Part shown: positions 1-4,335 of the stretch, in pieces | Numbering within the stretch: the stretch's first letter is position 1 | How the letters are laid out: the number at the start of each line of letters is the position of its first letter | Virus record (IMG/VR): IMGVR_UViG_2534681647_000010 | DNA: 4,335 bases | Direction: 5' to 3' (one strand) | From: a virus | Lineage: Duplodnaviria > Heunggongvirae > Uroviricota > Caudoviricetes | The notes under the pieces: generated by a model | What the model saw: only the letters and a program-made list of their open reading frames with translations | Told to the model about the DNA's origin: nothing | The model's database searches: none | Translations under genes and position numbers: made by a program

Positions 1-134
1 TAATCGCCCTGATCGTCATCTGTTTAACCGTCATAGTGACGGCACTGGTAACGAGGAAAGACCTCTGCGAGGTACGAATCCGAACCGGCCAGACGGAGGT
101 CGCTGTCTTCACAGCTTACGAACCTGAGGAGTAA
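1..134 (+). CDS. hokD: Hok-family type I toxin (HokD/RelF-like), 5'-truncated by the window edge; frame begins at nt 3
   Basis: Translating from nt 3 gives IALIVICLTVIVTALVTRKDLCEVRIRTGQTEVAVFTAYEPEE, with TAA at 132-134. This is a hydrophobic transmembrane segment followed by a short Cys-containing periplasmic tail, as in Hok/Gef/RelF toxins, and it matches my recollection of E. coli HokD/RelF. The mok/sok region and the start codon lie outside the window. Confidence 0.8.
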   Translation, partial: IALIVICLTVIVTALVTRKDLCEVRIRTGQTEVAVFTAYEPEE

Positions 135-612: not shown

Positions 613-681
613 TGAATTCATCTACAATTCAGCGCAGGGCTGAACCCCTGTTGAGTAACACTGTGCCACCGGAGAAAGCCG

Positions 682-960
682 ATGGCGCAAAATTCCAGAC
701 TACACAATTCTGATAATTCAGCCGTCTTTGCCAGCAGGCACGGGCGGCGTTCTCATGCATTCAAATCTGACTGGTTCCGGCACGCCCCATGCACTGAAGA
801 ACAGGCCGAATGGCTGATTCAGAACTACCGCAGACGTGGGTATGAGTTTAGGAAAGCCCTCAGCCTCGATTATCGTCACTGGATAATCTACGTCAGGCTG
901 CCGTACTCCGAGCGCCCACCGCGTCCGTCCCGCACATTCCAGCAACGCATCTGGAGGTAA
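682..960 (+). CDS. Hypothetical small basic protein (92 aa), translationally coupled to the downstream DUF968 gene
   Basis: ATG at 682 preceded by GGAG (671-674). The ORF exactly fills the gap between rem and the ydfU-like gene. Its stop TAA (958-960) lies 1 nt before the GTG start at 962 and directly follows the GGAGG (952-956) that serves as the next gene's RBS. Protein is Arg/His/Trp-rich and contains several rare Arg codons (AGA/AGG). No family recognised. Confidence 0.35.
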   Translation: MAQNSRLHNSDNSAVFASRHGRRSHAFKSDWFRHAPCTEEQAEWLIQNYRRRGYEFRKALSLDYRHWIIYVRLPYSERPPRPSRTFQQRIWR

Positions 961-961
961 C

Positions 962-2011
962 GTGCGGGTATTACTTCGACCTGTTCCGGTACCGGAACTT
1001 GGGGTGGTGGTCCTTAAACCAGGCCGTGAATCCATGCAGGTATTCCATAACCCTCGAGTGCTTGTGGAGCCGGAGCCGAAAAGCATGCGCGGTCTGCCGT
1101 CCGGCATCGTCCCTGCCGTTCGCCAGCCGCTGGCGGAGGATAAATCATTACTGCCGTTTTTCAGCAATGAGCGTGTGATTCGTGCTGTTGGTGGCGCTGG
1201 TGCACTGTCTGACTGGCTGTTGCGTCATGTCAAATCCTGCCAGTGGCCTCATGGTGACTATCATCACAGTGAAACCGTTATTCACCGTTATGGTACCGGC
1301 GCAATGGTGTTGTGCTGGCACTGCGACAACCAGCTGCGTGACCAGACATCCGAATCACTCGAGCAACTTGCTCACCAAAACCTGTCAGCATGGATGATTG
1401 ACGTCATTCGTCACGCAATGAATGGCACACAGGAGCGTGAATTATCGCTGGCTGAATTATCCTGGTGGGCGGCCTGCAATCAGGTGGTGGATGCACTACC
1501 TGAGGCAGTAGCGCGTCGTTCGCTGGGATTACCAGCGGAAAAAATCCGCTCCGTATACCGTGAGAGTGACATCGTACCGGGAGAACAGACAGCCATCAGC
1601 ATACTGAAGCAGCGCACAAAAAATATTGCGCTGCCACTTCACGTCCACCAGCAACAAAATCCACCACAGAAAAAAACGGTTGTCAGTATCGCCGTTGATC
1701 CGGAGTCTCCTGAATCGTTCATGAGGCGGCCTAAACGTTGCCGCTGGGTAAATGAGAAATACACGCGCTGGGTAAAGACACAGCCGTGTGCGTGTTGTGG
1801 TAAGCCTGCTGACGATCCGCATCACCTGATTGGTCATGGTCAGGGGGGAATGGGGACAAAGGCCCACGATATTTTCACGCTACCGTTGTGCCGGGAGCAC
1901 CACAACGAACTTCATGCAGACCCGCTGGAGTTTGAGAAAAAGTACGGCTCTCAGATTGAGTTAATTTTTCGTTTTCTTGATCACGCCTTTGCGACTGGCG
2001 TGCTCGGGTAA
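962..2011 (+). CDS. ydfU: YdfU-like prophage protein (DUF968 family) with C-terminal Cys/His-rich HNH-like zinc-finger motif; putative nuclease
   Basis: 349-aa ORF, GTG start at 962 with GGAGG at 952-956, stop TAA 2009-2011. The C-terminal segment CACCGKPADDPHHLIGHGQGGMGTKAHDIFTLPLCREHHNELH (about nt 1787-1915) has CxCC...HH...CxxHHNxxH spacing typical of HNH-type zinc-finger nucleases. Position (after rem, before rusA and Q) and length match the Qin YdfU as I recall it. Confidence 0.8.
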   Translation: MRVLLRPVPVPELGVVVLKPGRESMQVFHNPRVLVEPEPKSMRGLPSGIVPAVRQPLAEDKSLLPFFSNERVIRAVGGAGALSDWLLRHVKSCQWPHGDYHHSETVIHRYGTGAMVLCWHCDNQLRDQTSESLEQLAHQNLSAWMIDVIRHAMNGTQERELSLAELSWWAACNQVVDALPEAVARRSLGLPAEKIRSVYRESDIVPGEQTAISILKQRTKNIALPLHVHQQQNPPQKKTVVSIAVDPESPESFMRRPKRCRWVNEKYTRWVKTQPCACCGKPADDPHHLIGHGQGGMGTKAHDIFTLPLCREHHNELHADPLEFEKKYGSQIELIFRFLDHAFATGVLG

Positions 2012-2023
2012 AAGAGGTGACTG

Positions 2024-2395
2024 ATGCTCATAGATTTGGTTTTACCTTACCCGCCGACGGTGAACACTTACTGGCGACGCCGTGGCAGCACATATTTTGT
2101 ATCAAAAGCCGGGGAGCGTTATCGCCGGGCAGTGGTGCTTATTGTTCGCCAGCAGCGACTGAAATTAAGCCTGTCCGGACGGCTGGCAATAAAAATTATT
2201 GCAGAACCACCGGATAAGCGCCGCCGTGACCTGGACAACATTCTGAAAGCACCGCTGGATGCGCTGACGCATGCGGAAGTGCTCATTGATGACGAGCAGT
2301 TTGATGAAATCAATATTGTGCGCGGTCAGCCTGTGCCAGGTGGACGGCTGGGCGTGAAGATTTACGAAATCAGAGGTGGTAACGATGGCGCGTGA
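2024..2395 (+). CDS. rusA: Crossover junction endodeoxyribonuclease RusA (Holliday junction resolvase)
   Basis: ATG at 2024 with RBS AAGAGGTGA (2011-2019); stop TGA 2393-2395. Protein contains [13 protein letters not shown] near the N-terminus, the acidic core [14 protein letters not shown], a DDEQ segment and GGRL, which match the conserved RusA pattern (E. coli RusA has PDRRRRDLDN ... DDAQ ... GGRL). Confidence 0.9.
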
Positions 2396-2756
2396 TATCC
2401 AGATGGTTCTTGAGCGATGGGGGGCATGGGCAGCAAATAATCATGAAGATGTAACATGGCCCTCGATAGCTGCTGGTTTTAAAGGATTAATCCCGACTAA
2501 AGTGAAATCACGTCCTAAGTGTTCTGATGATGACGCCATGATAATTTGTGGTTGTATGGCACGATTAAACAAGAATAATCAGTATTTGCACGATTTGTTG
2601 GTGGATTATTACGTAGGTGGAATGACATTTATGGCTCTTGCACGTAAGCATAGATGTTCTGATGGGCTTATTGGTAAAAGGCTTTATAAAGCGGAAGGTA
2701 TTATTGAAGGAATGCTTATGGCTCTGAATGTCCGGTTAGATATGGATATGCGGTAG
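2385..2756 (+). CDS. Late-gene antitermination protein Q (short QuuD/phage-82-like type)
   Basis: ATG at 2385 preceded by AGAGGTGG (2373-2380); the track's start at 2376 is a GTG inside that RBS. Stop TAG 2754-2756. [25 protein letters not shown]... and the Cys-rich segments ([19 protein letters not shown]) are consistent with the short Q antiterminator family, to which DLP12 QuuD belongs. Overlaps the 3' end of rusA by 11 nt, as is typical for this operon. Confidence 0.85.
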
Positions 2757-2812
2757 GGATATATAGTGATGAGGGTTATGTTTTCTGTGTTTATAATTAA
2801 CATGTTTATTTT

Positions 2813-2846
2813 TTGATGGTCATGTATTGTGGAAGGTAGATAAAAT
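2813..2846 (+). promoter_or_regulatory. Candidate sigma70-like promoter just downstream of Q (possible late promoter or moron promoter); weak call
   Basis: TTGATG (2813-2818), 18-nt spacer, TAGATA (2837-2842), with TAAAAT at 2841-2846. The region is AT-rich, so hexamer matches are expected by chance; a perfect TATAAT also occurs at 2792-2797 without a good -35. Confidence 0.2.
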
Positions 2847-2847
2847 G

Positions 2848-2884
2848 TTGCCTGGTGAATTGAAAATATTGATAATCAATCTTC
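2848..2884 (+). promoter_or_regulatory. Candidate promoter of the CPBP gene with overlapping 13-bp perfect palindrome (operator-like)
   Basis: -35 TTGCCT (2848-2853), 17-nt spacer, -10 GATAAT (2871-2876). The perfect palindrome ATTGATAATCAAT (2868-2880) overlaps the -10. The element lies about 25 nt upstream of RBS AAAGGAG (2896-2902) and ATG 2908. Confidence 0.3.
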
Positions 2885-2907
2885 ATCATTAAATAAAAGG
2901 AGTGCTT

Positions 2908-3726
2908 ATGTGGATTGTGTTAGTACTGTCACTGTCAACTCTCAGTTGGCATAAGGTAGTGGCTTTTTCATTGTTGACGGTGTCTGTTGTCCTGGCTGTG
3001 CTTAATGATATTATTGATTGGTCGGTGTTATTTTTTGTTGCTACAATCGTTTTTTTTATTATTTTGAAGTTCAACTGGAAATATAACGCCTGGGCTAAAT
3101 CTATATATGAAGTTGGCATAGTTTTATCAGCCATAGCATTATTTTTCCATCTATGGCCAGGGTTTCACAATCCTGTAGTGCTAAATTCTGTTACTGTTGG
3201 CCCTCAAAGTACTCCCTATACAATGTATTTTAATTTTGATAAAGCGCTGGTGCCATTTTTGTTAGTCCTGTGTACATCTTCTTTGTTTAAAAAAGAAGTA
3301 AAATCAGAAGTGTCTTTGTGGAAGTGGGGGGCTCTGTCGCTCTCTGTTCCTCTTATCCTGTTTTTGGCTGTTTTTTTTGGTGGATTAAAGCCAGAGATTC
3401 ATTTTCCTGAGTGGTTGCCAGAGTTTATATTGGCTAATTTGTTTTTTGTGTCTCTGGCAGAGGAATCATTATTTAGAGGGTATATTCAATCACGGCTATC
3501 AGAAGTAACGTCTCCATTGGTTGCATTAATTGTGGCGGCTTTGTTGTTTGGTTTTTATCACTATTCAGGTGGTGCTTTACTTGTATTATTTGCCACGTTA
3601 TCTGGTGTTGTGTATGGATTGTCATGGATGTGGAGTGGGCGTTTGTGGGTTGCCACCCTTTTCCATTTTGGTTTGAATCTGTGTCACTTGTTATTCTTTA
3701 CCTATCCATTTTTAAAACATAATTGA
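2908..3726 (+). CDS. CPBP-family (CAAX protease / Abi-type) intramembrane glutamic metalloprotease; polytopic membrane protein
   Basis: ATG at 2908 with RBS AAAGGAG (2896-2902); the track start at 2902 is a GTG inside the RBS. Stop TGA 3724-3726. The protein is highly hydrophobic with multiple predicted TM helices and carries all three CPBP signature motifs in the correct order: EExxxR (EESLFR, nt 3460-3477), FxxxH (FGFYH, ending at H 3559-3561) and HxxxN (HFGLN, 3664-3678). The gene is AT-rich relative to its neighbours. Confidence 0.85.
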   Translation: MWIVLVLSLSTLSWHKVVAFSLLTVSVVLAVLNDIIDWSVLFFVATIVFFIILKFNWKYNAWAKSIYEVGIVLSAIALFFHLWPGFHNPVVLNSVTVGPQSTPYTMYFNFDKALVPFLLVLCTSSLFKKEVKSEVSLWKWGALSLSVPLILFLAVFFGGLKPEIHFPEWLPEFILANLFFVSLAEESLFRGYIQSRLSEVTSPLVALIVAALLFGFYHYSGGALLVLFATLSGVVYGLSWMWSGRLWVATLFHFGLNLCHLLFFTYPFLKHN

Positions 3727-3806
3727 TTTTTTCTATGGTTTTAAATTTATAAGACTGAAAAATAGCAGGACGTGACATTTGCATGAAAAATATGCACGGC
3801 AAAGCA

Positions 3807-3841
3807 TTTACGTACGTAAAAAATCAGGTATGCTGTTAAGA
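3807..3841 (+). promoter_or_regulatory. Candidate sigma70 promoter at the downstream edge of the AT-rich island; possible displaced pR'-like late promoter
   Basis: -35 TTTACG (3807-3812), 16-nt spacer, -10 TATGCT (3829-3834); predicted start near 3841. An intrinsic terminator follows about 30 nt downstream, giving a short promoter-terminator module. Confidence 0.3.
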
Positions 3842-3867
3842 GTGGTTATTTCGCCGCATAGCTTGAC

Positions 3868-3889
3868 CCCGCCTCTGAGCGGGTTTTTT
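3868..3889 (+). terminator. Intrinsic terminator (short GC stem plus T6)
   Basis: CCCGC (3868-3872) pairs with GCGGG (3879-3883) around loop CTCTGA, followed by TTTTTT (3884-3889). Oriented for + strand transcription; the reverse complement lacks a downstream U-tract. Could end the CPBP transcript, act as a tR'-like terminator, or both. Confidence 0.5.
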
Positions 3890-4012
3890 GTGCCCGCAAA
3901 GTAGCGCAGTGCGTTAAATGTGCTGGTAGTTATTAATACAGGTCTTTCAGCTTGCTGGCTTTTTCGACAAGAGTTATTGGTGTGTCACGTTAACCGGAAA
4001 GGGTAAAAAGAC

Positions 4013-4252
4013 ATGCTGAAACAGCAGGATATGACAGAAACCGCCAGAGTTGTGTTTGATGAATTAAGCGTCACCGAACCGGCGACGGTCGGGGAGATTG
4101 CGCAGAATACGTACCTTTCACGCGAGCGCTGCCAGTTAATACTGACCCAGCTGGTTATGCGGGTCTGGCAGACTATCAGTTCGGTTGTTACAGACGCCTT
4201 CAGTCCTGAAGGCTTTTTTATTTGTGGTAAATGGGCGGCTGGTGGGTGTTAG
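4013..4252 (+). CDS. Hypothetical small soluble protein (79 aa) with HTH-like segment
   Basis: ATG 4013 preceded by GGAAAGGG (3996-4003); stop TAG 4250-4252. The segment ATVGEIAQNTYLSRERCQLILTQL resembles a helix-turn-helix. No hydrophobic TM segment, so it is not a holin. No family recognised; could be a gene remnant. Confidence 0.35.
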   Translation: MLKQQDMTETARVVFDELSVTEPATVGEIAQNTYLSRERCQLILTQLVMRVWQTISSVVTDAFSPEGFFICGKWAAGGC

Positions 4253-4280
4253 CGGCACCTGTCAGTCCTTTGCTTATGTG

Positions 4281-4311
4281 TTGATGATAATTTACCTTTT
4301 GGGGCTATAAT
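4281..4311 (+). promoter_or_regulatory. Promoter-like element with consensus -10 (TATAAT) near the window end; weak call
   Basis: Perfect TATAAT at 4306-4311; the nearest -35-like hexamer, TTGATG (4281-4286), gives a 19-nt spacer, which is suboptimal. Any downstream target lies outside the window. Confidence 0.2.
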
Positions 4312-4335
4312 TGAACTAACCAATTGCTAATGAAA

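Follow-up and report, generated by a model that had tools for sequence, protein, structure and literature searches.

A displaced candidate Q-dependent late control module behind a CPBP-gene insertion in a lambdoid prophage segment of Escherichia coli

A segment of a lambdoid prophage of Escherichia coli, represented by 4,335 nucleotides (nt) of the IMG/VR virus record IMGVR_UViG_2534681647_000010 (the whole stretch is referred to below as the window), contains a gene for a Q antiterminator and, further downstream on the same strand, a short promoter–terminator module at 3807-3889, which is the subject of this analysis. The two are separated by a segment that carries a gene for a CPBP/Rce1-like membrane protease, and the module is followed by a small TrmB-like open reading frame (ORF) and a second terminator. 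The features are listed in Table 1. A first-pass annotation of the window had described a sigma-70-like promoter (TTTACG, a 16-nt spacer and TATGCT) followed by an intrinsic terminator (a CCCGC/GCGGG stem and T6), and all of these motifs are present where it had placed them. From the comparisons below, 3807-3889 is very probably a Q-dependent late control module, consisting of the late promoter PR', the Q-utilization site (qut) and the first terminator, and cognate to the Q encoded at 2385-2756.

Table 1. Features of the window, in order of position. Positions relative to the predicted transcription start are signed.
Feature	Position	Strand	Basis or remark
hok gene, 3' part, with hok-family toxin ORF	1-133		window start
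Two small ORFs	between the hok part and the DUF968 gene		
DUF968 gene	962-2011		
rusA	2024-2395		
Q antiterminator gene, 123 amino acids (aa)	2385..2756	+	ATG 2385; GTG 2376 is an alternative start
Inserted cargo ('moron')	2757..3806	+	from Q stop codon to late promoter; ~1,050 bp
Cluster of promoter-like sites	2817-2889		promoter scan
CPBP/Rce1-like membrane protease, coding sequence	2908-3726	+	Pfam PF02517, E=1.4e-19
Perfect 14-bp palindrome TTTACGTACGTAAA, candidate Q-binding element	3807..3820	+	-34..-21; overlaps the -35 hexamer TTTACG
-35 hexamer TTTACG	3807-3812	+	
Spacer, 16 nt	3813-3828	+	contains an A tract, 3818-3823
-10 hexamer TATGCT of putative late promoter PR'	3829-3834	+	aligns with TATCAT of the VT2-Sakai late promoter
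Start region and leader TAAGAGTGGTTAtTTCGCCgC, presumed pause/Q-loading part of qut	3837..3857	+	-4..+17; nearly invariant
Predicted transcription start	A3841	+	7 nt after the -10 hexamer in the mapped homologue
Predicted ~49-nt terminated leader RNA	3841..3889	+	start and terminator positions; counterpart of the StxS_L 5' end
First late terminator, CCCGC-CTCTGA-GCGGG + T6	3868-3883 + 3884-3889	+	+28..+49; terminator scan, RNA fold
TrmB-like small regulator, predicted first ORF of the late transcript	4013..4252	+	ORF list; annotated as frameshifted in RefSeq
Second late-leader terminator, GCCTTCAGTCCTGAAGGC + T6	4196..4219	+	about +356..+379; terminator scan; -10.5 kcal/mol

The Q protein matches the Pfam family PF06530 (Phage_antitermQ) over residues 3-119 of its 123 residues (E=8e-52), and in a phmmer search against the PDB its residues 9-90 are aligned with the Q21 chains of 6P18 and 6JNX (E=1e-7). 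It is 78.5% identical to the Q of VT2-Sakai (the Stx2 phage Sp5) and 85% identical to the DLP12-type Q.

In the VT2-Sakai record, a 'putative late promoter', a 'putative Q-utilization' site and a 'possible rho-independent terminator' are annotated directly after Q, and the sequence there (TTTACGATCGTAAAAATCTGCATATCATGATAAGAGTGGTTACATTGCCACGCAGTCGAACCCGCCGATGCGCGGGTTTTTTT) aligns with window 3807-3889 in every element. The start of the PR' transcript in Sp5 and Sp15 has been mapped by differential RNA sequencing (dRNA-seq), and the RNA 3' end was placed 258 nt downstream by Term-seq (Sy et al., PMC7547250). When the length of 258 nt is projected onto the Sp5 sequence, +1 falls on the A of AAGAG, which is equivalent to position 3841 of the window; the start that had been predicted near 3841 agrees with this mapped PR' of the homologous prophage. 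Alignment with the DLP12-type PR' region, which the first-pass annotation had proposed as a check, reveals an identical palindromic box and an identical -10 hexamer. When the region from Q to the end of the window is compared with phage genomes by megablast, similarity begins abruptly at 3811-3834, and homology between loci with different inserts behind Q starts exactly at TTTACG.

The generality of the arrangement was assessed in 331 Q-encoding sequences (the window and 330 further loci), which sample four Q clades, namely the window/DLP12/933W-type, the Stx2_EH1846-type, the Stx2a_1447-type and the phiP27-type. A module profile spanning the -10 element to the T run was run on all of these sequences. 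Of these, 307 have exactly one module, in every case following Q on the strand that encodes it. The two adjoin in 113 loci and are 0.45-3.75 kb apart in 193. Among 11 loci without a usable module, ten nevertheless keep the box proper to their Q clade, with a more diverged leader. At one locus (L052) the module is absent within 6 kb downstream of Q.

Position-wise conservation was computed over the 116 distinct module variants, numbered from the transcription start. In the -10 element, T is found at -12 in 88%, A at -11 in 100% and T at -7 in 100% of the variants, while the inner positions are conserved at 43-55%; this is the classic signature expected of a sigma-70 -10 element. Conservation in the start region from -4 to +6 (TAAGAGTGGT) is 97% or higher over Q clades of only ~45% identity, and in the leader it remains high to about +24. 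An A tract is located at -23..-19. A common -35 hexamer is lacking across the clades, and a clade-specific palindromic box is found in its place. A hairpin followed by a T run occurs at +27..+56 in 294 of 305 loci. Its stem is usually CCCGC/GCGGG, with loops that vary, whereas distant clades have CCUCGC/GCGGGG about 10 nt further downstream, a pattern that fits an intrinsic terminator under selection. In phage ev207 (L006), a singleton mutation breaks the hairpin (GCTGG).

The box of the window is the perfect palindrome TTTACGTACGTAAA, which has no other match in the window at up to three mismatches. Four classes of box may be distinguished: TTACG(TA/AT)CGTAA in 154 loci with the window, DLP12 and 933W-type Q; CGCGTACGC in 78 loci with the 1447-type Q; GCGGTCCGC in 70 loci with the EH1846-type Q; and GCGGAATTCC in 4 loci with the phiP27-type Q. 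The class of the box agrees with the clade of Q in 306 of 306 loci, the Q proteins of the EH1846-, 1447- and phiP27-types being 42-51% identical to that of the window. The agreement extends to a finer scale. An AT centre goes with the Q motif CSDTCIGK (90 of 91 loci) and a TA centre with CSDG[L/Y/F]IGK (63 of 63), over six Q clusters, and these co-varying residues lie where the predicted recognition helix of Q begins. The recognition-helix region is conserved within a box class and different between classes. The box at -34..-21 is therefore a probable Q-binding element, and the invariant leader is probably the part that interacts with the host polymerase. The proposal of the first-pass annotation that the module is the real Q target is supported by the VT2-Sakai homology, the identity of Q, the occurrence of one module per locus with a matching box in 306 of 306 loci, and the same displacement behind 33 kinds of insert.

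One and the same downstream half (+11..+62) of the module can be joined to different boxes. Five such haplotypes (one of them at L255) link all four classes, which indicates recombination inside the conserved leader.

Several findings weigh against the assignment of 3807-3889 as a Q-dependent late control module. TTTACG/TATGCT agrees with the consensus at 8 of 12 positions only and is not listed by a promoter scan with a threshold of 9/12, and the window holds 36 promoter-like sites of equal quality, compared with about 23 in block shuffles; the promoter motif by itself is not above chance. Most clades possess an A-rich stretch at -45..-38, a possible UP-like element, which the window lacks, so that the promoter may be weaker here. 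(The stretch is also absent from DLP12-type modules, in which the insertion adjoins the -35 element; the corresponding position in the window is 3795-3806.) The leader of the window departs from the consensus at +9, +16 and +19, and the leaders of the 116 variants have no conserved TAnnnT, the canonical hexamer of a sigma-dependent pause: the best candidate, at +7..+12, most commonly has C as its sixth base (69%), where the consensus needs T. The first hairpin has an energy of -9.0 kcal/mol, as against -12.6 kcal/mol in Sp5. Moreover, the PR' transcript reaches +258 in Sp5, in Sp15 and, from a plasmid-borne PR', in K-12 without Q (PMC7547250), so that the first hairpin does not stop all polymerases in Stx phages. 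At one locus with the same CPBP insert and a Q 94% identical to that of the window (L028), the box is kept, the leader is degenerate and the tail of the terminator is lost. In the Sakai prophage Sp4, the late region is rearranged. Finally, no insert class goes with more than one Q clade, and between Q and the box there is no homology at which recombination could take place. Linkage alone could therefore keep Q and box together, and could partly account for their association.

On the other side, the invariance of the box amid variable flanks, together with the fine-scale covariation, argues for function. As to chance, a promoter followed by a terminator 15-60 nt past its start occurs once in the window, whereas the mean in shuffles is 0.05 and 4% of shuffles have one or more. 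This combination by itself is only suggestive, and it is the conservation that lifts the module beyond chance. The terminator scan picks up the hairpin at 3868-3889. The possibility of a bidirectional terminator was ruled out because the hairpin at 3868-3883 has no T run on the minus strand, and a 41-aa ORF overlying the module (3779-3904) was rejected as an explanation, the sequence of its upstream half varying from one insert class to another.

Some of these adverse findings are what would be expected if the module were a true PR' homologue that has become a non-functional relic, with Q inactive on it or the late operon dead. The lineage-specific changes in an otherwise near-invariant leader, the weaker hairpin and the loss of the A-rich upstream element would agree with such a state, as would the condition of the relatives, which are defective prophages with insertion sequence (IS) elements and rearranged or truncated late genes; the L028 locus shows that modules of this kind do decay. 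This explanation is nevertheless unlikely, since the Q ORF, the box, the -10 element, the start region and the terminator are all intact, and the module variant of the window is identical across 16 independent loci. A 321-nt query spanning the module (3700-4020) has matches in 1,942 of 5,426 complete E. coli genomes overall, with at least 99% identity in 537 E. coli records and 100% identity in many chromosomes of O157:H7 and other Shiga toxin-producing E. coli. The changes in the leader, furthermore, preserve the predicted 5' hairpin by means of a G-U pair.

The segment that separates the late promoter from the Q stop codon has a GC content of 0.31-0.40, compared with about 0.5-0.6 upstream of Q. 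It shows the properties of a moron: presence/absence polymorphism at a fixed site, atypical GC content, predicted promoter sites and a shared terminator at 3868-3889. The CPBP insert class (21 loci) belongs to a set of 33 unrelated classes, mostly of low GC content and mostly on the opposite strand, that occupy this position in the 193 loci with a displaced module. These include an OmpD/NmpC porin in DLP12-type phages, a GIY-YIG protein in phiP27, and Bro/KilAC-like proteins (the latter judged by eye from translated insert ORFs). Other inserts match defence candidates in PADLOC (KAP NTPase/PDC-S20, RelA-SpoT/PDC-S33, caspase and TIR-TM), one has a weak PADLOC match to an NYN nuclease (E about 5e-4), and some carry the Pfam domains NACHT/STAND and NYN. 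The CPBP insert itself is unmatched in PADLOC.

This arrangement bears on where the late transcript begins. The insertion follows the Q stop codon and precedes the -35 element, and the CPBP gene is therefore placed outside the late transcript; the earlier view that the module has been displaced from Q by an insertion of ~1.05 kb, with the CPBP gene upstream of the late promoter, is supported. The first-pass annotation had also offered an alternative, in which the terminator simply ends the CPBP mRNA and the late promoter is located at 2757-2900; on this view the hexamers would be fortuitous. Its first part probably holds: a terminator scan from 3727 to 3868 finds none besides the module's own, and because of this the module's terminator probably also ends the CPBP mRNA, the gene probably being expressed from its own promoter or by early read-through. 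Its second part is not supported, and the alternative as a whole is highly improbable. It can draw on the promoter-like sites at 2817-2889, the 8/12 consensus match of TTTACG/TATGCT with its 36 equals in the window, and the lack of any other terminator after the CPBP gene. However, 2757-2900 is within the low-GC insertion, which is found in one of the 33 insert classes only; it contains neither a module detectable by the profile nor a match to the box at up to three mismatches; and the module at 3807-3889 is conserved in phages without the CPBP gene, including those in which it adjoins Q.

With the start at 3841 and the terminator at 3868-3889, the module is predicted to yield a leader RNA of ~49 nt, a species of a size that would be lost by standard RNA-seq size selection. 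Besides the terminator hairpin, a 5' hairpin is predicted at +2..+17 (3842-3857), as GUGGU/GCCGC in the window and GUGG/CCAC in most variants, and in diverged variants it is retained through wobble pairs or register shifts; it may reflect either an RNA structure or a dyad in the DNA. It may be asked whether this RNA, made constitutively in the lysogen, is the main product of the module, with the leader conserved for a regulatory function of the RNA (as seed, 5' hairpin and terminator with a U tail) in place of Q loading. Such a function would be compatible with a Q-dependent module. The conservation of the leader to about +27, far past the known needs of qut, and the fold with a 5' hairpin and a terminator hairpin with a U tail speak for it, as does the case of the Stx phages, in which the terminated PR' transcript gives the Hfq-binding small RNA StxS. 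The activity of StxS, however, resides in the 3' 74 nt (StxS_S) of the 258-nt RNA (PMC7547250), and a homologue of that part is absent from the window: a blastn comparison of StxS_L +50..+258 with the window yields only chance matches of 11 nt, so that the StxS body is absent and homology is limited to the first ~49 nt. A search of the whole window against Rfam at a permissive threshold leaves the module unmatched, and the fold of the leader is not significantly more stable than that of shuffles (z = -1.77). A regulatory RNA as the main product is accordingly rather unlikely, and the Q-dependent late control module remains the preferred reading of 3807-3889.

The naming of the terminators requires some care. 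The first-pass annotation had likened the module to a pR'/tR' unit, and a terminator does follow the promoter as it had supposed. The first hairpin should not, however, be taken as the whole of tR', because the Stx transcript runs on to +258, and it is the +258 site that is called tR' by Sy et al. (PMC7547250). In the window, a strong second terminator (4196-4219) is located at the 3' end of the TrmB-like ORF, and Stx2_EH1846 has an identical one behind its copy of this ORF (L005 3284-3301). By analogy, this second terminator is probably the window's equivalent of the +258 tR'. The TrmB-like ORF itself (4013-4252) gave no hit in a Pfam search; it has 79 aa here, as compared with a 198-nt (65-codon) gene in phiP27.

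From the observed homology, position, conservation and Q–box covariation, the following course of Q binding, pausing, termination (with its efficiency) and antitermination may be proposed. Transcription would start from the sigma-70 promoter TTTACG-16 nt-TATGCT at about A3841. When Q is absent, a leader of ~49 nt would be made, with polymerase stopping at the hairpin and U6 of 3868-3889, and any polymerases that leak through would stop at 4196-4219. After induction, Q produced from the early transcript would bind TTTACGTACGTAAA and be loaded onto polymerase held at +1..+17. By analogy with Q21, Q would then narrow the RNA exit channel, so that terminator hairpins could not form, and transcription would be expected to read through into the tRNAs, the esterase, and the lysis and virion genes. 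The 1,050-bp low-GC segment was inserted behind the Q stop codon and in front of the -35 element, and its CPBP gene would borrow the late terminator.

The closest relatives of the module appear to be those of the 933W/H-19B-type phages and of DLP12 (phage 82 was outside the comparison). The Stx phages of the 933W, VT2-Sakai (Sp5) and H-19B type, at the stxS locus, have TTTACG, a 16-nt spacer, the box TTTACGWWCGTAAA, a TAnnnT -10 element, the start region AAGAGTGGTTA, and a CCCGC..GCGGG hairpin with a T run at equal distance. Their PR' is constitutive, with a mapped start, and their Q is the 78.5% identical homologue mentioned above. In these phages the Q ORF extends into the -35 element (distance -13 nt), whereas in the window this element is 1,050 nt further, behind the CPBP gene; and the centre of the box is AT in the former and TA in the latter, with Q changed to match. 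The downstream regions also differ, the StxS body, tR' at +258, tRNAs and stx being found in the Stx phages, and the TrmB-like ORF and second terminator in the window.

DLP12 and DLP12-type phages have the closest Q (85%), the identical box TTTACGTACGTAAA and -10 hexamer TATGCT, and a module likewise displaced by an inserted gene. In DLP12-type phages as in K-12 DLP12, the promoter TTTACGTACGTAAAAAATTGGTTATGCT stands in front of the lysis genes, 1.6-2.9 kb after Q; K-12 (NC_000913.3, about 577,195-577,280) has quuD 2.86 kb before the module and essD 165 nt after it. A passage of PMC7918800 cites work according to which the Q-type antiterminator of DLP12 controls the lysis operon. What separates Q from the module in the DLP12 group is a porin gene of opposite orientation (1.6 kb; 2.9 kb in K-12, where IS5 is included), in contrast to the same-strand CPBP gene here, and the lysis cassette directly follows the module in DLP12, unlike in the window. 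The 3'-end tables of PMC7815308 have no entry for essD, nmpC or quuD. PR' regions have been compared in PMC6266700, but the elements seen here are not defined there.

Phage 21 (Q21/PR'21; 6P18, 6JNX) resembles the window more remotely. Its Q also belongs to PF06530, its Q-binding element is also inside the promoter upstream of the -10 element, and a terminator also follows the promoter. The nozzle mechanism of Q21 (PMC6606751; bioRxiv 10.1101/651190) is presumably shared by the Q of the window. The two proteins are only distantly similar (phmmer E=1e-7). The Q21 site consists of a TGAGCA direct repeat between the -35 and -10 elements with C:G pairs at -21 and -13, in contrast to the single palindrome at -34..-21 here; a -10-like pause element is defined in phage 21 and unassigned in the leader of the window. 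The unit of PR', 6S RNA and tR' in phage lambda follows the same logic: the late promoter is constitutive, transcription in the lysogen ends after a short leader, and read-through depends on Q. The lambda unit adjoins Q, whereas that of the window is displaced. Lambda Q is of a different Q family, and the lambda leader is 194 nt in length, compared with about 49 nt predicted here.

The module is unannotated in this sequence, but its kind is known (the PR'-qut-terminator of the 933W/DLP12-type), and DLP12 already provides an example of its displacement, an arrangement that is common and mostly ordinary. The 80-nt module is annotated in VT2-Sakai, while the other phage records examined have no feature, or a 'hypothetical protein', over it. 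It is recognizable in phages of four Q types, among them phages with stx2 under Q alleles other than Q933. For the O157-type prophage, the assignment would fix the start of the late operon, make the CPBP gene a lysogen or early cargo, and put the tRNAs and the genes downstream under Q control. Of more general interest, though resting on sequence comparison only, may be the pairing rule between Q and box and the cargo hotspot. The clade-specific box would provide a rule by which a Q allele can be paired with its promoter, which bears on the differences in Shiga-toxin output among q alleles, and the gap between Q and promoter would be a place to look for prophage cargo, defence candidates included.

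A wider proposal joins three statements: that the palindrome is the Q-binding element, that the gap between Q and box is a cargo hotspot, and that the ~49-nt leader is possibly a widespread prophage small RNA. It is advanced tentatively, the three together being somewhat more apt to fail than to hold. If the palindrome has this role, the Q proteins of the 933W, DLP12, Q-EH1846 and Q-1447 types would load from a symmetric site overlapping the -35 element, unlike the two direct repeats of Q21, and the pairing of Q with late operons, stx included, would be readable straight from the sequence of an 8-14 bp palindrome. The gap, likewise, would be a dedicated cargo hotspot of lambdoid phages, in which several inserts are candidate anti-phage defence genes, and any gene located there would be shielded from late transcription.

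The Sakai prophage Sp4 (ECs_1082 to ECs_1086) is ~95% identical to the whole window. From 661 to 4335 the identity is 95.2%, and Sp4 has no counterpart of 230-660; the window is therefore derived from a prophage related to Sp4, rather than from Sp4 itself. In the Sakai chromosome, the Sp4 site homologous to the module is near NC_002695.2 1,178,171-1,178,219. A literature search found no paper naming ECs1084-1086. In the complete prophage, the region of the window is followed by the genes for tRNA-Ile and two tRNA-Arg, and by those for the esterase, holin, lysozyme and terminase. The only Rfam hit in the window is a weak isrK-like match at 143-224 (24.9 bits, with a gathering score of 50), which includes a terminator at 203-220 and is probably the 3' end of the hok mRNA. 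The best promoter-like site of the window is at 4284-4311 (ATGATA-16-TATAAT, 10 of 12 consensus positions), just 5' of the next gene, which is annotated in related prophages as having a helix-turn-helix (HTH) domain or as belonging to the AraC family.

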